Below, piece by piece: positions 7,723-51,751 of a DNA stretch of 64,000 nt. Under the pieces are notes generated by a model that was not told the DNA's origin, ran no database searches, and saw only the letters and a program-made list of their open reading frames with translations. A program made the position numbers and the translations under genes. Origin of the DNA: an uncultured Methanosarcinales archaeon (GTDB lineage: Archaea; Nanobdellota; Nanobdellia; Woesearchaeales; CAIVOO01); NCBI GenBank assembly GCA_964485195.1, contig CAZAIK010000006.1:12720-76719 (forward strand), written 5' to 3'. Position 1 is the first letter of the stretch. Each line of letters opens with the position of its first letter.

Positions 7723-8562
7723 TCAAAATGCCTGGCGTATGATTATTCTGTAGGTTTCAAAAGTGTTGAGCACAATTGTTTCCACAATCGCTGCAAGGAC
7801 AAGAACCACCAGGGAGAGGATAAGTATCAAGGCATTAACTGCTATCAGGTTTTTAAAGGACTCTGAGCCAAACCTCTCCTTAAGAAAGCCTTCTGAAAGC
7901 TCAGTTCCCGAGATAGTTGCAAATATGTACGCCCCTATCTCAAGAATAACGTGGGGAAGAACACTGAAAAGCACCAGCACCAGGTAAATGAAGGGGTTTT
8001 TTCCGACAGCCATGGCCCCTGTCTTTGCAATGTTCCCAAAAATCGTGCCCCAAACAGAAGCATTCCACGCTATCAGGAATATTGCCCCGTTGCCCAGAGC
8101 GAGGGAAACAGCAAAAACAAGGAAAAGAACTTTAATGTTGTTCGCAAAGATTCCCATGAAAAGGCCTCTTGAAAAAACAGCACCTCCTGAGATTCCAATT
8201 ACCTCCAGCTGTTCCCTGAAGAGAATGTTTGATGCCAGGGCGGGCATCACTGTTGAGAAGAAGGCATAAACTATGAACATACCGAAGAAAGCATAAAAAT
8301 ATACCTTGATGAACTGCTTTTGGTTGTAAATGGCCCTTAATATTCCTCCCTCCCTGGCTTCCTCTATCTCCTCCAGCTCTGACAGCTTGTAAAGGGAAGG
8401 CAGGAAAAGCACTGAGATTATCAGCACAGATATCAGTGCAGGATCCTGTGGAAATAGCAGGACGGACGCTCCTATGCCTATGGTGGTATATGCCACTCCA
8501 AGAAGAAAGGCATACACTGGGTATTTTTTTAGAAAAGAGGCATCATATAGGCGCTCAAGCAT
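7723..8562 (-). CDS. SpoIIM-like (DUF95) integral membrane protein
   Basis: 279 aa, multiple TM helices; DUF95-type topology common in archaea. Confidence 0.55.
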   Translation of the reverse strand: MLERLYDASFLKKYPVYAFLLGVAYTTIGIGASVLLFPQDPALISVLIISVLFLPSLYKLSELEEIEEAREGGILRAIYNQKQFIKVYFYAFFGMFIVYAFFSTVMPALASNILFREQLEVIGISGGAVFSRGLFMGIFANNIKVLFLVFAVSLALGNGAIFLIAWNASVWGTIFGNIAKTGAMAVGKNPFIYLVLVLFSVLPHVILEIGAYIFATISGTELSEGFLKERFGSESFKNLIAVNALILILSLVVLVLAAIVETIVLNTFETYRIIIRQAF

Positions 8563-8604
8563 TTTTTAATTAAATTTTTATAGTTTTATAAAGTTTATCA
8601 TAAA

Positions 8605-9285
8605 ATGGCTGAAATAAAGATAATAGGGACAAGTCATATTGCAAAGCAAAGTGTTGAAGAAGTCAAAAAGGAAATTTTTGGATTCAGCCCGGACATTGTT
8701 GCAGTTGAACTGGACTACCCCAGGTTTCGGGCTCTTGTTTCAGGGAAAAAAGACAGGGCAAGGTGGGGCGACATAAGATATATCGGAATAAAAGGGTTTC
8801 TCTTCGCCCTCATTGGGGAATATGTTGAGAAAAAGCTGGGAAAGATTGTGAAGACAAAGCCAGGAGCTGACATGCTCGCTGCCATTAACACTGCCAAAAA
8901 AATGCAGATTCCCATCGCCCTGATAGACCAGCCCATTTCCATAACATTAAGGAAGTTCTCCAGGGCACTGGGATGGAAGGAAAAATGGAACATTTTTGTT
9001 GACATTATCAAAAGCCTGCTCTTTGGAAAGAGGGAGATGAAAAAACTCGGGCTGGACAAGCTGGACCTCACTAAGGTTCCTGAAAAAGAGCTGATTAAGA
9101 AGACCATGAGGATAGCCAAAAAAAGGTATCCCAGCATCTACAAAGTCCTGGTAGCTGACAGGAACGAGTACATGGCAAAGATGCTCATCAATATTGCAAA
9201 GCAAAACCCTGGCAAGAAGATAATCGCTGTGATGGGGGCGGGCCATGCAGAAGACGTTGAAAAGATGGTGAGAAAGGCGGTATGA
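8605..9285 (+). CDS. TraB/GumN family protein
   Basis: 226 aa. IIGTSHIAKQS N-terminal motif and GAGHAEDVEKM C-terminal motif of the TraB family. Confidence 0.7.
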   Translation: MAEIKIIGTSHIAKQSVEEVKKEIFGFSPDIVAVELDYPRFRALVSGKKDRARWGDIRYIGIKGFLFALIGEYVEKKLGKIVKTKPGADMLAAINTAKKMQIPIALIDQPISITLRKFSRALGWKEKWNIFVDIIKSLLFGKREMKKLGLDKLDLTKVPEKELIKKTMRIAKKRYPSIYKVLVADRNEYMAKMLINIAKQNPGKKIIAVMGAGHAEDVEKMVRKAV

Positions 9286-9626
9286 GCTTGAGATTACGGA
9301 GCAGGCTTAACGAATTAAAAGACTTAAGGAGTTATTTCTTAATAATATTTATTGTTGTTTTTGGGCTTAATTTAAACCACGCCATCTTTTTCCTATACCC
9401 TTTAAGTGTTGGACTAAATTTTTTGGAGATGATGTTTGTTTATTTTTCATTGACAAGAATTGTCTATTTAGCCGCTCTCATTCCAACAGGGGCGATAGCA
9501 GACAGGCTGGGTATTAATTTTAACATTTACATCTCTTCAGCTCTAATCTTAACTGGTGCCGTGGTGCTTTACATCCCCCATTTTGGCAATACCAGAACAA
9601 TCTCCAAGACAAATATTTATAAATAA
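9282..9626 (+). pseudogene. N-terminal fragment of an MFS-type transporter (remnant)
   Basis: 114 aa, 3 TMs, with MFS motif-A-like PTGAIADRLGINFNIYISSALILTGAVVLY. Far too short for a transporter; ends in a stop with no continuation. Confidence 0.3.
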
Positions 9627-9647
9627 CAGAAGGCTAATGATTAGGGT

Positions 9648-10373
9648 ATGGATTGGTATACCATAAAGAGGCATTTCACCTTCAGCAGGGAGGAGATGAG
9701 GGACATCTTTGTAACTGTCGTCTTTCTCGGCTTCCTTTTCGCGTTCAGGGACTGGGGAGAGCCATTCAGTTTTGCAGCGGGAATATTCAACTGGATAAAT
9801 GCATCCATTATTGTGCTGCTCGTGCTTCTTGTTTACATCTCCTTCCAAAGCCTTATGGGCTTGAGAAGGGGGTACAAGACCCAGTACAAGATGTGGTTCT
9901 GGGGGTTGCTTGTGGCAATAGCAGTGGGATTTGCCACCAGCGGTTATGTAACTCTCGCTTTTTTGGGAACAGTGGTGATTTACCACATGGAAGGGCATCG
10001 CCTGGGAAAGTTCCGTTACGGCCTGAATTACAAGGATTTGGCAGTGGTCTCCCTTATGGGTCCTTTGTCTGTGATAATACTCGCGCTTATTTTCAGGATA
10101 ATAACCCTTTTCTCCGCAGCCCCTCTTGTGCAGAAGGCAATGGTAATATGCCTGTGGGTTGCTTCTGTCAACATGCTTCCACTGCCCTGGATTGACGGGG
10201 GCAACGTGTTTTTCGGCTCAAGAATGCTCTGGGTATTTTCCTTTATCGGGATAATTGCTGCCTCGGCACTTCTTTACTTCCTCAGCTCTGTATGGGGAGC
10301 AATATTCGGGGCCTTGGCAGTGGCGATACTCGCAGCAATATTCTGGTTCGTGTTCTTTGAAGAAGGGTTTTAA
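9648..10373 (+). CDS. M50/site-2-protease-like membrane protein (atypical HMEGH in place of HExxH)
   Basis: 241 aa, 6-7 TMs. NMLPLPWIDGG matches the M50 LDG motif. The zinc-site position reads YHMEGHRLG (H-x-E-x-H) instead of HExxH. Confidence 0.55.
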   Translation: MDWYTIKRHFTFSREEMRDIFVTVVFLGFLFAFRDWGEPFSFAAGIFNWINASIIVLLVLLVYISFQSLMGLRRGYKTQYKMWFWGLLVAIAVGFATSGYVTLAFLGTVVIYHMEGHRLGKFRYGLNYKDLAVVSLMGPLSVIILALIFRIITLFSAAPLVQKAMVICLWVASVNMLPLPWIDGGNVFFGSRMLWVFSFIGIIAASALLYFLSSVWGAIFGALAVAILAAIFWFVFFEEGF

Positions 10374-11132
10374 ATGGACCTTAAAAAAACAATTATAAAT
10401 GAGTTTTCAGGGGAAAACGCGCAGATATTGTACTTAAAGCACGCAGAGGAAGGGTTTTGGGATTCTGAATCTTACTTTATCACAAAATATTTCACAAAAA
10501 AGGAGAAAGTTCTTGACATCGGCTGCGGAACAGGCAGGACAACAATTCCGCTGCACAAAAAAGGTTTTGGTGTTATTGGCGTGGATTTGGTTCCTGCAAT
10601 GATAAAGAATGCGAAAAAAGTTGCCAAGAAAAAAGGATTAAACATAAAGTACCAGGTAGGCGACGCCACAAACCTTGATTTCAAAGACAATTATTTTGAC
10701 CACGCCCTTTTTTCCAACCAGGGATGGACCCAGATTCCTGGAAGGGAAAACAGGCTCAAAGCTCTAAAAGAGATAAACAGGGTCTTGAAAAAGGGAGGAA
10801 TATTCATCTTCACCACCCACCGCAGGGTCTGGCTGAGCGAAAATTTCCTTTTCTGGATTAAGCAATGGATTAGATTTTATTTGCTGAAACCCCTGGGATT
10901 TGATATTAAGGAGATGGATTTCGGGGACAGGTTTTTCGCGAGAGAAACGAGCGACAAGCAGAGGACTTACAGGACAGAGCAGTATATTCACATACCTTCT
11001 GTAAGGGAAGTTAAAAAAGCCATTGAAAAGGCAGGGTTTGATATAGTTGAAGTCAACGGGGAGTTGCAGATATCCAAGGATAATACCGGGAAGCATCCCC
11101 CTGTTTTTTACATTGTCAGGAAGAAAAGCTGA
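10374..11132 (+). CDS. class I SAM-dependent methyltransferase
   Basis: 252 aa. Motif [16 protein letters not shown], motif post-[12 protein letters not shown]. Confidence 0.7.
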
Positions 11133-43781: not shown

Positions 43782-44735
43782 ATGAATGTAATCTGGACTG
43801 AAAAATACCGACCCAAGAACTTCAGTGATGTTCTGGGCCAGGAGCACGTAGTAAGCAAGGTTGAGGCCTTTGTAAAACAAAAAAATATGCCCCATCTTCT
43901 TTTTGTAGGGCCTGCGGGTGTTGGAAAAACCTCCTTGGCATTGGTCATAGCGAAGCAATTTTTTGGAGAGGGCTGGAGAAACAATTTTCTTGAGCTTAAT
44001 GCTTCGGATGAGAGGGGAATTGATGTCATACGCGTAAAAGTGAAAGATTTCGCAAGGACCAGGGCGATAGGGGACGTGCCTTTCAAGATAATATACCTGG
44101 ACGAATGCGACGCGCTGACCAGGGATGCCCAGCAGGCTTTGAGAAGGACTATGGAAAACTACACTCAGACCTGCCGTTTTATACTCTCTGCCAACTACAG
44201 TAGCAAACTTATAGACCCAATACAGTCAAGATGCGCAATCTTCAGGTTCAGGCCCCTTGAAAAAGAGCATATAGGCAAGATAATAGAGAGGATAACCAAG
44301 GAAGAGGGGCTTGAGGTGGAAAAGGCTGCAGAGGACGCCTTATTCGCTGTTTCAGGAGGAGATTGCAGGCGGGTGGAAAACATTATGCAAAGCTGCACAG
44401 CAATATCCAAGAAAATAACCGAGGATCTCGTGTTTTCCATCTCCTCAATGGCCAAGCCAAAAGAAATACTTAACGTGCTTAACTCAGCGTGGGAAGGAAA
44501 ATTTGTTGAGGCAAGAAAGGGATTATTGAATATTATGCTTAACTATGGACTGTCAGGAGCTGACGCCATACGCCAGATTCAGAAAGAGATTCTGGAAATG
44601 GACATAGATAACAGGGAAAAAATGCTGTTAATTGAAAAATGCGGGGAGGCAGAGTTCAGGGTTAGCGAGGGAAGCGACTCTTTCATCCAGCTGGAAGCTT
44701 TCTTGGCCAATGTGGGAAGGCTAGGAAATGAATGA
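43782..44735 (+). CDS. rfcS: replication factor C small subunit
   Basis: Internal start MNVIWTEKYRPKNF; Walker A GPAGVGKTS, DEAD-like YLDECDAL, SRC-like arginine RFRP. Confidence 0.85.
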   Translation: MNVIWTEKYRPKNFSDVLGQEHVVSKVEAFVKQKNMPHLLFVGPAGVGKTSLALVIAKQFFGEGWRNNFLELNASDERGIDVIRVKVKDFARTRAIGDVPFKIIYLDECDALTRDAQQALRRTMENYTQTCRFILSANYSSKLIDPIQSRCAIFRFRPLEKEHIGKIIERITKEEGLEVEKAAEDALFAVSGGDCRRVENIMQSCTAISKKITEDLVFSISSMAKPKEILNVLNSAWEGKFVEARKGLLNIMLNYGLSGADAIRQIQKEILEMDIDNREKMLLIEKCGEAEFRVSEGSDSFIQLEAFLANVGRLGNE

Positions 44736-45588
44736 CCACCTAATATTAAAAGAGGCGAAAACTTTAGTTGAGGATTTGGAAGAGGCTAAAAAGAGAATAC
44801 AGATTATTTCCAAAGAGAACATTCTTATCAAAAAGATCCTGGCTGAAAAGAACAAGGCAATTCTTGAGCAACAGGAAAAAATAGAGAAGTTCACCAGGCT
44901 TTTGGTCCTTTCTGACAAGATGCTCTCTGAAATGAAGGAAAAATTATACAACAAAGAGGAAAAATCAAAAAGGCTTGAGACAAAACTAAACAACATCAGG
45001 GAAAGCCAGGAGGATTATCTTTCAGAAATTAAGGAAGCTGTCAAGTCCCGCGACGACAAAATAAAAAAACTTCTTGAAGAGAAGGAAGAAGCTGAAAAAA
45101 GGCTCGTGGCCCTTCTTGATGCCTATGAAAAAACCAAGGAAAAGGCAAGGAAAATTTCAGAAGAAGGGGATGGGAATGCTAAAGAACTGCGCGGCCTGCT
45201 GGAAGAAAAAGAAAGGCAAATCAGTGACTTGAGAAAAGTTTTGTCCGAGAGCAGCAAAAGATTAGGACATCTGGAAGAGCTTAACAAGGAGCTGACTGCC
45301 CAGTATGAACAGGAAAAAGAAGTACTGGACAGGATGATTAAGAGAAGAGACAGTGAAATAAACAAATTAAAGAAATCCTCAAGATTGTCAGAAGATAAAA
45401 AAGAAAAGCAGCAAGAGCACGTCAAGATAAGTGTTCCTAAAGAGTTTGATCCTTTTGAAAGGAAAGAGATAGAATCAATGATTAAGATGGCATTGTCTCA
45501 CGGGGACAATATCAGAGAAATAAAGGAATCCCTGCTCAGCGCAGGGTATGACGGGGAAAAAGTAAATGAAATGATCAGACGTGTTTGA
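44728..45588 (+). CDS. coiled-coil protein (hypothetical), co-transcribed with rfcS
   Basis: 286 aa, K/E-rich heptad coiled coil; 8-nt overlap with rfcS stop. Confidence 0.5.
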   Translation: MNDHLILKEAKTLVEDLEEAKKRIQIISKENILIKKILAEKNKAILEQQEKIEKFTRLLVLSDKMLSEMKEKLYNKEEKSKRLETKLNNIRESQEDYLSEIKEAVKSRDDKIKKLLEEKEEAEKRLVALLDAYEKTKEKARKISEEGDGNAKELRGLLEEKERQISDLRKVLSESSKRLGHLEELNKELTAQYEQEKEVLDRMIKRRDSEINKLKKSSRLSEDKKEKQQEHVKISVPKEFDPFERKEIESMIKMALSHGDNIREIKESLLSAGYDGEKVNEMIRRV

Positions 45589-46519
45589 CCGTCACCTGCT
45601 TTGTAATGAACTGGTCGTAATCATATTCTAAGGTTGCTGTAACAGTCTTAACAAAGTCGCCCTGCCCTCCTGTGGGCTGGGTGCAGGATATCTGCCTTTC
45701 CCCTCCATACAGCGCAATGTAACCTTCAGAGCCTGTCTTCGGCTGTCCTTCCAGGGTTTGCAGTCCTGTGCACTGAAGTCCGCTCATACTCGTGTCTATG
45801 CTCAGGAAGAGCCTGTCTCTTTTCTGTATGGTATCTTCGCATTGTGAGCCAGGCTCAAATATCTTTCCTGTTCCAACGTGCCTTATGGTGAAGGTCAGCA
45901 GAATAGTGTCTGTTCCTCCCTGGGATTCCCTCATTGAGGTTATATGCACAGGCGCTCCTGAATTAGCCACTGCCTTTGCCTCATTTACCTTGCACACAGA
46001 AGCGTCGGAGCTGGAAAGGTCTTCCTTAACGCACATATTGGTGCTGACCTTGGTCCCGTATTTATAGCAGGCATCTGCCTTCATTGTTGTGGTTATTGGA
46101 CCGAAAAGCGTTCTCTGAAAGTTCAGCCCGGGAAAATCCACAACTAGGGTGTCCCCTTCTATAATCTCACCAGCAGGCCCTCTCCTTGTGGGAAGCATTC
46201 CCTGTGGTGGGTTTTTCTCCAGGGCTGCTGCAGATACTCCATAATCTGAAGGGTCTATCCCAGATGTTTTTACCAAAATGTCAGAGCCGGAAGGTATTTC
46301 CCACTCCCCCACATTCTTTATCCTGACATTGATGCTAAATGGAAACTGCGCCCCGTCGAATATCTCTGAAGGGGGCGCGTCCTCAACAAACTCCATGGCC
46401 AGGCCTTTAGTCCCGCCAACAAAAGTTGGGCCAACGCTTGGCCCTTCCTCCTGGGGGGCGCACGCAATTACAAGTGTAACAATCATCAAATAAATTCCAA
46501 ATAACAGGATTTTTCTCAT
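45575..46519 (-). CDS. secreted Cys-containing lipoprotein, paralog family member 1
   Basis: 314 aa. Signal plus lipobox VIAC. Shares ACY.Y.TK....C, QGAP..ITS, L(E/D)Y(D/G)Y motifs with the next two genes. Confidence 0.6.
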   Translation of the reverse strand: MRKILLFGIYLMIVTLVIACAPQEEGPSVGPTFVGGTKGLAMEFVEDAPPSEIFDGAQFPFSINVRIKNVGEWEIPSGSDILVKTSGIDPSDYGVSAAALEKNPPQGMLPTRRGPAGEIIEGDTLVVDFPGLNFQRTLFGPITTTMKADACYKYGTKVSTNMCVKEDLSSSDASVCKVNEAKAVANSGAPVHITSMRESQGGTDTILLTFTIRHVGTGKIFEPGSQCEDTIQKRDRLFLSIDTSMSGLQCTGLQTLEGQPKTGSEGYIALYGGERQISCTQPTGGQGDFVKTVTATLEYDYDQFITKQVTVKHV

Positions 46520-46527
46520 TTTATCAC

Positions 46528-47439
46528 CTAGGATATTTTTTTGATTTGTATACTTTTCCTTTTTGAATCCATATAGCCGTATTCCAAATTAGCGTCAAGT
46601 GTTGTTGTATATGCCAGGTTCCCCGGCACGTTGAAAACGCAGGTTATCAATGCCTGGCCGTTTACCAGGCGAACAGGGCTTGCGGGAAGGCACTGGCCTG
46701 CTGCTCCTCCCAGTTTGAAAGGGGCATAATGTATTTTGTCAAACTTATCATAAGTAACTTCTGTGCACATTGGAGAGTAGCCGTTCTCCATAACCTGGCC
46801 GCCTCCCACGTTTGAGATTCTAATCTTGAATATAGCCCTCCCTCTTAAGGATTCCTGCTGGACAGAAGTTATGGCGACAGGAGCTCCCTGGCCGCCTCCC
46901 ACAGTTGCTCCGTGGGGAGTGCAGGCTCTCTGAACTACAGCGCTGTAAGGGTCGGGGTCCACGCAAACAGGCAGGCTTGCTTTAGTGCTGTAATCGTAAC
47001 AGGCTGTTGCCTGCAAAGTAGCGGGATACACGTCTATGTCAGGAGGCATACTAACATCCAAAGTGCCGTATGTGGGAAATTGTATCTGGGTGTACCCTCC
47101 TTCGGGGTTTACAGGGCTCTTGCCCTCCAAGGAGCCTATTACATGCACTGGATTTCCAACCCGGATAATGTTAGGGTCAAACCCTGATAGATAAAAGTAA
47201 ACCCCTGTTGTTTCTGATCCCAGGTTTTGCACTTCCAGGACAATGTTGTGGCCAGTATCCTGCTGGCCTGCTGTGTAAATTACAGCAGGAGGATGGTTCG
47301 GCAGGAAGTTAAAGAAAATGCCCTGCGTGCCCCTGTGAGTTTCTGTAACCACTGTTTCCGGCTCCCTCTCTGTGGGAGCGCACGATGCAAGTAGAATGGA
47401 TAAAGCAGAAATTATCACAAAAAGCTTGAAATACCTCAT
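46528..47439 (-). CDS. secreted Cys-containing lipoprotein, paralog family member 2
   Basis: 303 aa. Lipobox LASC; motifs ATACYDYSTKASLPVCVDPDP, QGAPVAITSV, LEYGY. Confidence 0.6.
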   Translation of the reverse strand: MRYFKLFVIISALSILLASCAPTEREPETVVTETHRGTQGIFFNFLPNHPPAVIYTAGQQDTGHNIVLEVQNLGSETTGVYFYLSGFDPNIIRVGNPVHVIGSLEGKSPVNPEGGYTQIQFPTYGTLDVSMPPDIDVYPATLQATACYDYSTKASLPVCVDPDPYSAVVQRACTPHGATVGGGQGAPVAITSVQQESLRGRAIFKIRISNVGGGQVMENGYSPMCTEVTYDKFDKIHYAPFKLGGAAGQCLPASPVRLVNGQALITCVFNVPGNLAYTTTLDANLEYGYMDSKRKSIQIKKIS

Positions 47440-47482
47440 TTTGCCTTTTTAAAGTGATACTGTGTATTTAAATTTTTTCTTT

Positions 47483-48454
47483 TTATATTGAAACAGTCCT
47501 GAATACTGTTGTTTTTGCCGAGGAACTTTGAGTATAGCCATAATCAAGGCTTACAGATACAACTGTTGAATAAGCAGTTGCTTCCTCTGTGAACGGGCTA
47601 CCATAAACACACCTTATTAAGTCATCATCTCCAGTTAAAACCAGCGGGAACGGCACGCATTTTAAATCTTCAGTCCCCCCCAGCTTGACAGTGACGGCCC
47701 CACTTTCAATTTTGTTCCAGGGAGGGGAGCCTTTCAGACATTCATTGGTTTTTCCTGCTGTATAAACCAGCCCTCCTCCTTTGTTTTGAAGGTGTAGTGT
47801 GAGCTGAAGCTTTTTTCCATTTCTTTGGGAAATCATTTTGGGCTCCACCTTTGTTATTGCAAGTGGAGCTCCCTGGCTTTCAAGGTTAACTGTCTGCATC
47901 TGGCAGGGCTTGTCCTGGGTTTCCTGAAGAGGGGCAGGGTCTATGCACAGGGGAACATTGGCTCTTGTCTGGTAGTCATAGCAGGCTGTTGCTGTGAATG
48001 TGGCTGGATAGCTTTCCCTCTGGGGGCCTAGTCTCAAAGCTTCAAAGCTCTTGGAGAAGACAGCCCTTTCACCAAGAGGGTTGTTGGGCTTCCTGCCTTC
48101 AAGCTCAAATGTGAAGGAATTATCCGAACTCCCTAACCGCTCATTGTATTTCAGCCAGGGGCTGTCAAGGTTTCTTACCGCGGTGCTGTCATACGCTAAA
48201 ATCATTCCGCCGCTTTCTATGTCTGCAGCCCCCTTGTTTTCCAGGATTAGTGTGATGTCAAAAATCTCCCCTGTGTATGTCTCATTGGGAGGGCTGTTGG
48301 GGCTGAATCTAAAAATCAAGGAGTCTGTTCCTTTCCTGAAGTCCTCTGCAGTCAATTCTTCAGGCCTGTTGCTTGGCCCTCCCATCAGGTCGCAGGCGCT
48401 GAACATAAAAAGAAGTGCAAGCGCCAGGCAAAAAAACAATGATTTGTGCTTCAT
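47483..48454 (-). CDS. secreted Cys-containing lipoprotein, paralog family member 3
   Basis: 323 aa. Lipobox FSAC; motifs ATACYDYQTRANVPLCIDPAP, QGAPLAITKV, LDYGY. Confidence 0.6.
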   Translation of the reverse strand: MKHKSLFFCLALALLFMFSACDLMGGPSNRPEELTAEDFRKGTDSLIFRFSPNSPPNETYTGEIFDITLILENKGAADIESGGMILAYDSTAVRNLDSPWLKYNERLGSSDNSFTFELEGRKPNNPLGERAVFSKSFEALRLGPQRESYPATFTATACYDYQTRANVPLCIDPAPLQETQDKPCQMQTVNLESQGAPLAITKVEPKMISQRNGKKLQLTLHLQNKGGGLVYTAGKTNECLKGSPPWNKIESGAVTVKLGGTEDLKCVPFPLVLTGDDDLIRCVYGSPFTEEATAYSTVVSVSLDYGYTQSSSAKTTVFRTVSI

Positions 48455-48494
48455 AATTCCTCTGAGATTAAGTTACTTTTAATTTTTTGTGTTT

Positions 48495-50435
48495 TTAGGA
48501 CGTAGCTGACCCTTCTTCCCCTCCTGCCTGTGCCGGGGGGCTTCTCCTTATGCTGATAGTGGCAGATTCCTCCAGGGCAAAATCATACTCTGCCCTTGCA
48601 AAGAAGGACTTTGGTGCAAGGGGAACCCTTCTTCCGTCACTCGGGTCCCGCAGGGCCAGATCAATATCCTCAGCCACGTAAGTGCAGGTTATGGTGTAAT
48701 ATTCCACCTCCTGCATCCTTTGGTTTATTCTTTCAACTTCAAAGCTATATGCATTTGTCCCTTCCTTGTACTCTTCATTAGATGTTCTAAAACTAACGGG
48801 GTTGAATGAATTGTCGCAACTGGACAGCTTCACTCCCTTCGGAACATATGCGTAAAGCTTATTGAATTTGGAAATCTCCCCCTTCCACCTCGGCTTCACA
48901 GTTATCCCTATCACAGGGGCAGGGTATGCCCCTTCCTCGTTCGCTGATATTAACGGAACCGGGTCGTTTATGCCTATGCCCAATTCTATGGGGCCCTGGG
49001 TGTATTCCGCTGTTGGGCTTCTTTCATCAAAGGGCACGTTATAAGCATCGTAAACATCTTTGTTAGAGGGATATTCAATTATGTTTTGCCTGTCTGAAAG
49101 ATGCGCAGTAATCCTTGACTCTGTCTGGAAATTAAACTTGGCAATGAAGTCTATCTGCTTTTGAGATACAGTACCCCTCTCTATGCCATCTTCAAAAATA
49201 CAGGGAATTGTTTCCCTGCTAATCTTTTCATCAACAACAAATTGAGCAGGATTCGTCTTTCCTTCAATCTCTGTGTCGTGAACCTTGCACTCTGTCTCTA
49301 TGGTTATTTCAGCCCCTTCTGCATAGGATGCAACTTCAAGGTCTGCCCACAGGTAAATCTGCTCGCCTTCATAAAAAACCTGGTCCTTGGGCCTAGGCCC
49401 GAATTCTGTTATGTAAACCCCCACTGGCTCCCTTGCCTGCTCAACCTCCCCGCCGTAATACTGGCCTCCTGTGGCTATCTGTATCTGCCTCTCAACCAGG
49501 CTTCCAACACCCTCCCTGAATGTCGTGGGAAATTCCAGCACGTTTTGCCAGGCATTTGCGACCATTTCCCTGCCTTCGGGGGAGAGCGTGGTTACTTTTG
49601 CTATGGGGTCCACTGCGCTTACTCCCGCAGCGCTCAGGGAGAAAAAGAAAAAGGAGAATAATGTTATAATTATTGCTATCATGTATATGCCTCTTCCTAA
49701 GCTGTAAAGCAATCCCCTGGCGCTTTTGTCTATGTCCTGGCTCATTACTATGTAAATCAGCACCAGCGAGGGGGTGAATGCAACTATCAGCACTGTGAGG
49801 GCTGACTGGGTTAAGGCTGAAAATTCTGGGACAATATTTGCAAGGGGCTGCAGGAAAGCATAAGGGGGGTTTTGCTGCACTATTGTATTAAGCAAAAGTG
49901 TTGGCAATCCGTAATCAAGACAGGCAATAAGCACTGAAAGGCCTATGGGCACCCCTATGAATATCAGCAGGAAAAGTATCACAATCTCTGCAGCTATCCT
50001 GAAAGAGTAAGCTTCATAGCTTGTGAAAAAATTGAAAATTTGTATTACCAGGAACAAGAGGCCGGCAAGCCCTATGAGGTTAACATTCCTGTAAACACGA
50101 TGCCCTCCTCTGAATGCCCAGCCCAATAACGCCCCTCCGACGCCCCATCCAACCTTTCCAATCCTGCTGAAGGGGGAAGCAACTTTGCCTGCTGCTTTTC
50201 CGGCAGGCATCTTGGCAACTTCCGAAGCCTTCTTTCCCACCTTGCCTGCCGCTTCGCTCACTGGCATTGATGCTACCTGCTTGGCCTTTCTTCCGGCTCC
50301 GTAAAAAGTGGGGGTGTATTCCTGGGCTGCCTTTTTTATTTTCTCCTTCCATTTCTTTTCCTTAAGCATCTCTGCCTCTGCCTCTTCCCTCTGCTTCTGC
50401 TCTCCAGCCATTGGGTTTAAAGGTTCGTCAGCCAT
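48495..50435 (-). CDS. large polytopic membrane protein with repetitive K/A-rich cytoplasmic N-terminus and about 350-aa extracytoplasmic C-terminal domain
   Basis: 646 aa. N-terminal repeats (AGKVGKKASEVAKMPAGKAAGKVAS), about 6 TM helices at residues about 110-330, then a soluble domain rich in E/Y/T. Confidence 0.6.
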   Translation of the reverse strand: MADEPLNPMAGEQKQREEAEAEMLKEKKWKEKIKKAAQEYTPTFYGAGRKAKQVASMPVSEAAGKVGKKASEVAKMPAGKAAGKVASPFSRIGKVGWGVGGALLGWAFRGGHRVYRNVNLIGLAGLLFLVIQIFNFFTSYEAYSFRIAAEIVILFLLIFIGVPIGLSVLIACLDYGLPTLLLNTIVQQNPPYAFLQPLANIVPEFSALTQSALTVLIVAFTPSLVLIYIVMSQDIDKSARGLLYSLGRGIYMIAIIITLFSFFFFSLSAAGVSAVDPIAKVTTLSPEGREMVANAWQNVLEFPTTFREGVGSLVERQIQIATGGQYYGGEVEQAREPVGVYITEFGPRPKDQVFYEGEQIYLWADLEVASYAEGAEITIETECKVHDTEIEGKTNPAQFVVDEKISRETIPCIFEDGIERGTVSQKQIDFIAKFNFQTESRITAHLSDRQNIIEYPSNKDVYDAYNVPFDERSPTAEYTQGPIELGIGINDPVPLISANEEGAYPAPVIGITVKPRWKGEISKFNKLYAYVPKGVKLSSCDNSFNPVSFRTSNEEYKEGTNAYSFEVERINQRMQEVEYYTITCTYVAEDIDLALRDPSDGRRVPLAPKSFFARAEYDFALEESATISIRRSPPAQAGGEEGSATS

Positions 50436-50484
50436 TTTTCAAATAAGAAGAAATCCTTATTTCACCTCTTTTTTTTATCAAAGC

Positions 50485-51696
50485 TCATTCAAGCTTTACT
50501 GCCAGGTCAACAACTTCAAATGTTGAGACCGGCTCTATCTTTATGGCATTAGTGCCTTCTTTTGCAAAGCTGTTGATATTTCTTGTGTACTCCCTTTCTC
50601 TTGTTTCAAAGCCTGTTTGTATTCCATTAATGAACAAGTCGGCATTTTTTCTCGTCGCTGAGTCTGTGAATAATAATTCCAGGGTTAAATTATTCCCTCC
50701 TGAAGATATGGTATTAAACTGTGCACTGTTCAAATCGAAATAATAAGTAAAAGGGACTGGCTCTTTCAATTGAAGCCTTATCAGGATATTGTCCATAAGA
50801 TAGAAAGCTTCAGAAGGCTCCTTGACTTCTGTGCTGAAAGTTATGGTGTTCTCCCCGCTTGAAAGGATGTTTGTGGATATTGGCTGGCTTACTATGTCCC
50901 CGCACACAGGTATTTGCGAATAAACATTCCTGTTGTTAACCTCCACATCCAGTTTACCCAAGTCTGCCTTATCCCCGCAATCCACGTAAAATCTCAGCCT
51001 TGCCGTCTCCAGGTTATTGTGTTCTGTTGAGGATATTATGAAGCTGCTCTGGGATTTTTTCCCTGAAATGTCTGTTATGTCAGCCACAAGCTTTAGGTTT
51101 GAAAGGTCATAATAACTGGTTTTCCAGAAAGCAAACCCCACAGAGCCTGCCTGTATGATAAGGGTGTTGCTTCCCTTGAGAAGGTCAGAGGGCAGCCTCA
51201 CCGCAAGGTTGGGGTTTTCCTGCTCTTTTTCATAAATCCTCTGCCCATTAAGCTCAAGTATCAGCTCTCCTTCATGATCATCTATGTTTACAGAAAAAAG
51301 GGTGTTTTTTGTGTTCTCAACATCCCCTAATGAAAAGGTAAGATTATAGGCCTGGCTTGAAAACCAGCTGTTTTTCACAGTTATGGCCTCTGCTGTCTTC
51401 AGGGTAACTGCCTCAGTAGAGACGAACAAGGTTAGGGGAGGTATTGACTTTTCAAACTCTGTTGCAGAAATATGCTCCAACAATCCGGGATGCTCCAGAA
51501 GAAGGATTCCTTCAGAAATCTCTCCATTGGCTTCGCCGTTTCCTTCCCCATCAGTTTCATTGGTCAGATTCAAAAGTTCCTGCCTTTCTGAAGGTGGCAC
51601 AAAAAGTATGTACAGGATTATCAAGCCGCCGATAATTGCAACAAGAGTTGCCGCTTTGGTGCCGTCCTGGGCTTTTTTACTGGGGCGTAAGACCAT
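50485..51696 (-). CDS. signal-anchored extracellular protein, possible class III (prepilin-like) signal peptide
   Basis: Internal Met MVLRPSKKAQDGTKA|ATLVAIIGGLIILYILFV then about 370-aa N/S/T-rich domain. The track ORF extends to 51990 but that extension overlaps pelota antisense. TATA-like TTTATATATA 20-30 nt upstream of this ATG. Confidence 0.55.
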   Translation of the reverse strand: MVLRPSKKAQDGTKAATLVAIIGGLIILYILFVPPSERQELLNLTNETDGEGNGEANGEISEGILLLEHPGLLEHISATEFEKSIPPLTLFVSTEAVTLKTAEAITVKNSWFSSQAYNLTFSLGDVENTKNTLFSVNIDDHEGELILELNGQRIYEKEQENPNLAVRLPSDLLKGSNTLIIQAGSVGFAFWKTSYYDLSNLKLVADITDISGKKSQSSFIISSTEHNNLETARLRFYVDCGDKADLGKLDVEVNNRNVYSQIPVCGDIVSQPISTNILSSGENTITFSTEVKEPSEAFYLMDNILIRLQLKEPVPFTYYFDLNSAQFNTISSGGNNLTLELLFTDSATRKNADLFINGIQTGFETREREYTRNINSFAKEGTNAIKIEPVSTFEVVDLAVKLE

Positions 51697-51751
51697 CTTT
51701 AACTTAAAATAAATGAGAATATATATAAATGTTTTTCTTTTTAAATGATAT
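51697..51751. promoter_or_regulatory. AT-rich divergent promoter region (TATA-like elements for both flanking genes)
   Basis: TTAAAATAAATGAGAATATATATAAATGTTTTTCTTTTTAAATGATATATG between divergent genes. Confidence 0.3.

Follow-up and report, generated by a model that had tools for sequence, protein, structure and literature searches.

A conserved five-gene operon of Woesearchaeota for membrane-tethered, probable beta-sandwich proteins, with a candidate role in contact with other cells

What might five adjacent genes, all for extracytoplasmic proteins and none of a described family, do at the surface of a woesearchaeal cell? The genes lie on the minus strand at 45575-51696 of a 64-kb stretch of contig CAZAIK010000006.1 (GenBank assembly GCA_964485195.1), hereafter the window. 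They encode an N-terminally anchored surface protein (P), a polytopic membrane protein (M) and three paralogous lipoproteins (L1, L2 and L3). We find that the operon is specific to Woesearchaeota/Nanoarchaeia and that its five extracytoplasmic products are membrane-tethered and probably beta-sandwich proteins. We propose that the five assemble into a heteromeric complex anchored in the membrane, by which the cell engages the envelope of another, most likely a bacterial wall, and regard this proposal as about evenly balanced between right and wrong. A first-pass annotation of the same DNA had suggested a cell-surface or adhesion module; the module is indeed extracytoplasmic and belongs to a DPANN archaeon, and the adhesion idea is strengthened by the synteny and by the hydrolase fusions to M and L1 described below.

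The genes follow one another as P (50485-51696, 403 aa from an ATG), M (48495-50435, 646 aa), L1 (47483-48454, 323 aa), L2 (46528-47439, 303 aa) and L3 (45575-46519, 314 aa), with gaps of 49, 40, 43 and 8 nt; all five co-oriented reading frames are where the first-pass annotation had placed them. The reading frame of P is open as far as a TTG (51990) that lies within the divergent pelota gene; the ATG start is backed by 47 aligned homologs and by the NCBI gene call (P0268, 403 aa). A TATA-like box, TTTATATA (51722-51729, minus strand), is present at the promoter position previously given as about 51.7 kb. Read from the sequence, it is about 26-33 nt upstream of the P ATG, in the 55-nt divergent spacer common to P and pelota, a placement consistent with a leaderless or short-leader archaeal transcript, and it may be the operon promoter. 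GAGG-type motifs occur in the internal spacers before M and before L1. A second TATA-like box, TTTAAATA (47465-47472, minus strand), read in the same way, precedes the L2 start by about 30 nt. It may serve L2-L3 as an internal promoter, which would fit the genomes that keep only the L2-L3 pair. The cluster contains no ATPase or transporter, as had been reported.

We scanned one genome per GTDB species with a 10-sequence L2 alignment, which yielded 298 relatives, and analysed the best 80 loci (here numbered with the prefix L and three digits), calling open reading frames (ORFs) in all of them and then running iterated hidden Markov model (HMM) searches. Nearly all of these 80 are from metagenome-assembled genomes (MAGs) titled Woesearchaeota, Nanoarchaeota or Nanoarchaeia. 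The order P-M-L1-L2-L3 is found in about 50 of the 80, wherever the contig is long enough, which bears out the co-occurrence of the five genes across related genomes; median gaps are 35 nt for P-M, -4 nt for M-L1 and 44 nt between L genes. The best match of each lipoprotein in other loci is almost always the gene at the same position (58/59 for L1, 56/58 for L2, 49/50 for L3). L1, L2 and L3 are therefore three ancient orthologous groups rather than interchangeable copies, and their fixation by position argues for non-redundant subunits in fixed stoichiometry. A reduced form occurs in at least six loci (L015, L018, L026, L052, L059 and L076), where only L2-L3 is present next to the gene for the replication factor C (RFC) small subunit, with no P, M or L1 within the available flank of up to 10 kb.

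The flanks are conserved too: of 81 loci, 62 have a convergent RFC gene downstream, at a median distance of 137 nt, and 43 have a divergent pelota gene upstream, at a median of 85 nt, which marks a vertically inherited core locus and not an island. Base composition had left room for a horizontally acquired or viral island, since the cluster is the highest-GC 6.1-kb stretch of the window, at 46.7% against 41.9% for the rest; the first-pass annotation was right that GC is raised, though not to its figure of about 50%. GC at the third codon position (GC3) is 0.46-0.51 in the cluster, equal to that of neighbour genes. It is codon position 2 that carries the excess, which therefore comes from the amino-acid composition of the proteins and not from a foreign origin. 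No relatives were found in the viral contigs of IMG/VR. On flank conservation, codon-position GC and absence from IMG/VR we reject horizontal or viral origin, which has next to no likelihood.

L1-L3 are paralogs (BLASTP 6e-34 to 3e-9), and each has six further aligned Cys residues after the lipobox Cys, in agreement with the pattern noted at first pass. The lipoboxes of L2 (LASC, Cys20) and L3 (VIAC, Cys20) match the canonical [LVI][ASTVI][GAS]C, while that of L1 (FSAC, Cys21), with F at -3, matches a relaxed pattern only. The relaxed pattern was used for lipobox scans of the whole family; the lipobox Cys falls at about residue 17-25 in 133 of the 150 top family representatives, most of which have 7 Cys in total, and three family members match Pfam LPAM_1. 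The signals of L1-L3 contain no twin-arginine motif, which indicates Sec-type export. Lipid anchoring is plausible for these sequences, because lipobox proteins and the lipidation enzyme AliA (arCOG02177, with gaps) are reported in DPANN archaea (PMC12462473).

The L family is large and unannotated. When 1.84 billion cluster representatives were scanned in full by HMMER with a three-paralog profile, 2722 scored at E<=1e-3 and, of these, 857 at E<=1e-30. The 120 best word-index matches are nameless or labelled 'hypothetical protein', are from Woesearchaeota or Nanoarchaeota where an organism is named, and contain no Pfam domain. A PDB sequence-profile search with the family gave nothing significant. 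For the operon as a whole, the statement that the proteins belong to no described family holds: Pfam gave no match, and NCBIfam gave two far-below-threshold hits only (E 0.03 and 0.4).

We modelled L2 with AlphaFold2. The three window paralogs alone gave an unusable model (pLDDT 42), and a model from 143 sequences was used instead (pLDDT 94.3, pTM 0.85). Its only helices are the signal helix and one other, which is short; all else is beta structure, folded into two sandwich domains, and the strands at 137-160 and 277-301 are very long. The six post-lipobox Cys are conserved or nearly so across the family. Foldseek searches of the model against PDB and BFVD gave TM-scores of <=0.29, the top match being the Enterococcus WxL-interacting protein (WxLIP). 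As modelled, the L fold class is that of tandem Ig/CARDB-like (MG-like) beta-sandwiches in a full-length arrangement without a solved counterpart. With CARDB and MG Ig-like domains (PDB 3idu; complement C3/C4/C5; alpha-2-macroglobulin) one sandwich of about 100-130 residues aligns at a time, whereas for the two-domain arrangement with its very long strands and six-Cys pattern these structures hold no full-length counterpart. Class II fusogens, including archaeal fusexin (Fsx1, HAP2), were considered and dropped: the elongated three-domain ectodomain and the fusion loop of that class were not found, and no superposition went further than a single Ig-like domain.

Two kinds of homology could have tied these proteins to characterised systems, and neither was found. 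For ABC substrate-binding proteins, the L2 model is all-beta, Pfam and NCBIfam return no substrate-binding families, and no transporter is linked; for S-layer or oligosaccharyltransferase components, neither the five proteins nor the family profiles have a match in Pfam, NCBIfam or PDB sequences. The predicted export and anchoring features also survive re-analysis, with lipoboxes in L1-L3, a signal-anchor in P and a transmembrane block in M.

M was divided by a hydropathy scan and the positive-inside rule into three regions, all on the minus strand: a cytoplasmic head (residues 1-116, 50088-50435), a membrane anchor (residues 117-269, 49629-50087) of about five predicted transmembrane helices with an N-in/C-out orientation, and an ectodomain of 377 aa (residues 270-646, 48495-49628). 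The head is low-complexity and rich in K, R, A and G, with AAGKV-type repeats and 23 K+R vs 12 D+E. The K/A-rich head and the large outside domain of the first-pass annotation thus stand, while its 'about 6' helices is close to, but not, the number that fits the loop charges. A word-index search with M alone found 2 proteins; M homologs were taken from the neighbouring ORFs of the loci by iterated HMM, and since hydropathy counts of their helices are unreliable these served only to delimit regions. The head is not conserved in sequence, and its length up to the first hydrophobic segment ranges from 0 to 414 aa. Conservation among 56 full-length homologs is concentrated in a 265-320-aa ectodomain core containing conserved Cys, and across the same 56 the transmembrane block has no conserved polar or catalytic-looking residues. 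A catalytic membrane domain, archaeosortase- or protease-like, was for this reason dropped. A PDB profile search with M gave only compositional matches of the transmembrane region (ion channels, GPCRs), which were disregarded.

The ectodomain core appears to be related to the lipoproteins. The iterated M profile draws in L proteins from about round 7, and hhalign places the M core collinear with L1 (P-value 1.7e-4) and L3 (6.9e-5) over about 240 columns, against P-values of 0.24-0.47 for reversed-column controls. Motifs common to both are an N-x-G-x-G strand, a GAPV strand and a terminal Y-x-Y strand. From these alignments we consider the M ectodomain to be probably a fourth, transmembrane-anchored paralog of L, although a remote one.

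P begins with a basic N-terminus carrying a KKAQ motif, followed by one hydrophobic helix (about residues 15-33) ending in LFxPPxER and then a 368-aa ectodomain. The family shows the same plan: basic residues, [KR][GAS]Q (41 of 48 homologs), 5-10 small residues, and a hydrophobic helix ending in LFLPPxER. A word-index search found 46 matches, all of 381-407 aa, unnamed or 'hypothetical protein', and from Woesearchaeota/Nanoarchaeota where an organism is named. Two longer homologs (L007 4863-6581 and L049 4789-6468) are of about 560-573 aa vs about 400, the one in L007 with a weak DUF7728 match (0.003); L049 is on contig JBLKOM010000002.1 of MAG.221, from Lake Dziani Dzaha.

Most of the P ectodomain consists of three tandem repeats of ~100 aa (residues 108-208, 209-312 and 313-403; 50488-51375, minus strand), seen when the profile is aligned with itself, shifted by about 98 residues (probability 96.6%, E 5.7e-10). 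Neither this repeat structure nor the likely relation of M to L was part of the first-pass annotation. Neither P nor its repeats match Pfam, a PDB sequence-profile search with the P family gave nothing significant, and comparison of the P profile with those of L and the M ectodomain shows no similarity (P-value about 0.05). The profile of the repeat itself matches, among PDB sequences, the carbohydrate-binding module CBM35 of xylanase Xyn30D (4qb1; E 0.0032, 73/93 positions) and, more weakly, GH2/GH26 sugar-binding modules. This borderline match suggests a carbohydrate-binding jelly-roll of the CBM35/galactose-binding-like kind.

The N-terminus of P bears on a different reading, in which P is the class III subunit of a type IV pilus-like or other filamentous adhesin and M and the lipoproteins are assembly or anchor factors. 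The basic N-terminus, the [KR][GAS]Q motif and the hydrophobic helix would suit a pilin-like protein, and the first-pass annotation had read a class III signal, K-A|A-T-L-V, in the window P. A FlaFind-like pattern does match there at KAATLV. The signal is not a family feature, however, as the pattern matches only 6 of 48 homologs, and the conserved [KR][GAS]Q does not abut the hydrophobic core but precedes it by 5-10 residues; these sequences are explained at least as well by a plain N-terminal signal-anchor. P is moreover a 400-aa three-domain protein of constant length, unlike small pilins. The cluster itself shows no pilus ATPase, PilC-like platform or A24 peptidase, nor were any recognised in a census of recurrent neighbours within 10 kb in the 80 loci, which turned up housekeeping genes and was not a search aimed at pilus components. 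We consider a pilus very unlikely.

The most direct pointer to function comes from relatives in which M or L1 ends in a peptidoglycan hydrolase. M homologs were scanned one by one against Pfam, and calls above the gathering cut-off were counted. M carries an SLT domain in seven loci (L067, L041, L066, L044, L033, L004 and L074, with L055 below the cut-off), a Glucosaminidase (GH73) domain in L060 (L036 below) and a Peptidase_M23 domain in L029 and L069 (none below). In L034 and L037 M is tailless and SLT is on the C-terminus of L1 instead, again with no calls below the cut-off. In total 12 of about 59 loci are armed with a hydrolase above the cut-off, always in the C-terminal tail after the L-like core. 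The tails fall into at least five unrelated groups, which suggests repeated independent acquisition. Where inspected, the catalytic motifs are preserved: eight SLT tails keep the catalytic E-S/T motif and six of the eight the downstream G[LV]MQ, and the L029 tail keeps the M23 motifs HxxxD and HxH. E. coli EmtA aligns with the tail of L033 at 4e-7. The M tail is of <=17 residues in 30 of the 56 M proteins. These include that of the window, which stops 17 residues past the conserved core and so has no C-terminal cargo domain.

Other tails were seen. L001 (2100-2448) and L002 (M tail, about 8500-8914), the window's two closest relatives, have a Pro/Ala/Gly-rich linker followed by a ~70-aa module with 10 Cys, of the pattern C..Y...C...CVYL.E.D...RC.KC.A.LCC..., which matches no family and is entirely absent from the window M. 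Five L1 homologs are elongated to 407-645 aa (L029 3768-5201, L057 8028-9962, L038 8537-9766, L051 4225-5454 and L048 217-1437); their extra regions have no Pfam match and are additional cargo domains of no known type.

Woesearchaeota, to our knowledge, make no murein. Given this and the recurrence of the hydrolase fusions, the simplest reading is that the complex acts on bacterial walls. That gene order and orthologous groups are fixed, and that membrane anchoring is common to all, leads us to infer that the five proteins assemble into one complex, in which P would bind glycan and of which the target would be the bacterial wall. M would be the integral-membrane anchor, with its about five transmembrane helices, a variable cytoplasmic head and an ectodomain of the lipoprotein-like two-beta-sandwich design. 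L1, L2 and L3 would be Sec-exported, lipid-anchored paralogs with tandem Ig/CARDB-like domains, each probably with three disulfides, and P, tethered by its N-terminal helix, would display three CBM-like beta-sandwich repeats. P and the Ig-like subunits could then bind the other cell and space the contact with it. The free C-terminus of M or L1 would be a docking point, where a hydrolase, present in about 20% of lineages, would open the wall locally; the window copy would be an unarmed scaffold or binding version. A bolder form of the proposal, which we find rather doubtful, is that this is a contact apparatus of a new kind by which Woesearchaeota dock onto bacteria and, in armed lineages, breach their walls, with M, L1, L2 and L3 as a pseudo-symmetric stalk or ring anchored in the membrane, P as a glycan-recognising tip and the C-terminus of M/L1 as an exchangeable effector slot.

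A bacterial-wall role agrees with earlier proposals made from enzyme domains. One study of 2021 describes in Pacearchaeota/Woesearchaeota large extracellular SLT-domain proteins and a module of lineage-specific unknown families, proposed for attachment to bacterial walls (PMC8204110), another proposes a predatory reading for Woesearchaeota (Vigneron et al., 2022, PMC9723730), and a third finds archaeal peptidoglycan hydrolases prominent in Nanoarchaeota (PMC12352652). The armed M/L1 homologs (L033, L004, L074, L044 and others) are membrane-anchored, 524-1073 aa long and end in an SLT/GH23 domain. They probably contain, or at least overlap with, the proteins of the first two of these studies, for which the same role in binding or cutting bacterial walls was proposed. 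The available parts of those two papers describe the enzyme domain and the unknown families, and not the five-gene operon, the lipoprotein paralogs, P or the enzyme-free scaffolds.

Several observations weigh against contact with bacterial walls as the function. The window's own M and L1 carry no hydrolase (M has no Pfam match at all), and no SLT, GH73 or M23 homolog was found anywhere in the 64-kb window. About 80% of lineages are unarmed, so wall attack is not a universal function, and the hydrolase fusions may simply have made use of a handy surface anchor, which would reveal little of the ancestral role. The genomes with L2-L3 only show that the module can be split. The M-L homology and the CBM35 likeness of P are both borderline, and the physical assembly of the five proteins is something that we infer. 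Finally, we know of no host of any Woesearchaeon from culture.

The same enzyme-free majority, window included, is what might be expected of the main rival reading. Here the operon products would be structural parts of the envelope of the archaeon itself and act as a scaffold or spacer close to the membrane, such as an S-layer anchor or pseudo-periplasmic support, with no cell contact, and the hydrolases would have been appended to an abundant anchor. Core-genome synteny amid housekeeping genes, near-universal presence in the sampled lineage, the fixed set of paralogous subunits and the generic Ig-like folds typical of envelope proteins are also in its favour. It has difficulty with the three hydrolase classes captured independently by two subunits, which are hard to explain without meeting peptidoglycan, and with the CBM-like repeats of P. 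Typical archaeal S-layer glycoproteins are enriched in N-glycosylation sequons, whereas in the module sequons are not enriched and there are none in the ectodomains of M, L2 and L3, which weakens an S-layer glycoprotein reading. Woesearchaeota MAGs also have separately annotated, highly expressed S-layer genes, according to a further study (PMC11606122). An envelope scaffold is therefore possible, though we lean against it.

A third use for the same hydrolases and CBM-like repeats would be nutrient scavenging, in which cell-wall or other glycan debris is captured and processed for uptake rather than for cell-cell contact. Some versions of the module cleave both the glycan and the peptide part of peptidoglycan, to judge from their domains, and Woesearchaeota are predicted to need external building blocks (PMC9723730). 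On the other side, no transporter or binding protein of any recognised uptake system is linked to the cluster in any of the 80 loci, the L fold is all-beta and Ig-like and not a periplasmic-binding fold, and lytic transglycosylases held on five transmembrane helices would reach only near the cell surface. We regard scavenging as unlikely.

Known systems offer partial parallels to a surface complex of this kind. The Type V pili of Bacteroidia are encoded by FimA/Mfa operons of paralogous two-domain lipoproteins. The module resembles them by analogy only, in its several paralogous lipobox proteins of two predicted beta-sandwich domains each plus an anchor subunit, and differs in having no sequence or significant structural match to them, no obvious missing strand in the L2 monomer model, which is complete and confident, and no linked processing protease. 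Membrane-anchored peptidoglycan hydrolases such as VirB1 and PrgK (type IV secretion), FlgJ and EtgA belong to envelope-spanning machines. The armed M variants may be analogous in tethering SLT or M23 to a membrane complex for local wall opening. The bacterial enzymes cut their own wall, whereas a murein-free archaeon could use hydrolases only on a foreign one, and the remaining subunits are not homologous.

The WxL/Csc clusters of Gram-positive bacteria (WxLIP, DUF916/DUF3324; PMC10599100; PDB 9i1y) share with the module that they encode extracytoplasmic proteins only. Their complex links the cell to peptidoglycan or host surfaces, as the one proposed for the module may do. WxLIP, a membrane-anchored tandem Ig-like protein, is the best Foldseek match of the L2 model (E 6e-6), with TM-scores of 0.23-0.28 that denote similarity of fold class and not homology. 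The module has no WxL domains, is anchored by lipoboxes and N-terminal helices where WxL/Csc proteins have a C-terminal transmembrane helix or LPXTG, and is from another domain of life.

The surroundings of the operon in the window are archaeal housekeeping genes, for the RFC small subunit, pelota, TrmB, the alpha and beta subunits of phenylalanyl-tRNA synthetase, an AAA ATPase, an M24 peptidase and a PRC-barrel protein; ARAGORN found no tRNA genes in the whole window. Between RFC and L3 is a plus-strand ORF (44728-45588) for a 286-aa K/E-rich coiled-coil protein, whose best and only Pfam match is weak (Nsp1_C, 7e-4). It overlaps the RFC stop by 8 nt and is convergent with L3, with a 14-nt overlap of 3' ends. 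It looks like a lineage-specific insertion or extension, since RFC is directly downstream of L3 in most related loci. In L019 the RFC small-subunit ORF (8359-10908, minus strand) is of 849 aa vs about 320 aa elsewhere, which may reflect an intein or a fusion. Many 'binchicken' MAGs (L008, L012, L013, L014, L021 and others) are titled 'uncultured Methanosarcinales archaeon', yet have the Woesearchaeota-type pelota / P-M-L-L-L / RFC locus; the NCBI label on such MAGs is probably wrong.

SLT-domain proteins and lineage-specific families of no known function were already known from Woesearchaeota. The protein families described here are new to Pfam, NCBIfam and PDB, and the operon architecture is not mentioned in the accessible text of the literature searched. 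Several of these unknowns, first noted as stray murein-hydrolase domains and many lineage-specific families, are now tied into one conserved core-genome operon, and there is a high-confidence structure model for an unannotated family of 2700 clusters, together with marker genes that can sort armed from unarmed lineages in metagenomes. Should the operon prove to be a structural part of the archaeal envelope, it would still define a main membrane-proximal component. Few uncultured archaea are as abundant and diverse as Woesearchaeota, which may live freely, as symbionts of other archaea, or with bacteria as their hosts or prey. We know of no described apparatus for episymbiosis or predation of an archaeon on a bacterium. 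The module is a testable candidate for the cell-contact machinery of this major DPANN lineage and, if it does engage bacterial walls, would give a molecular handle on such cross-domain episymbiosis or predation.

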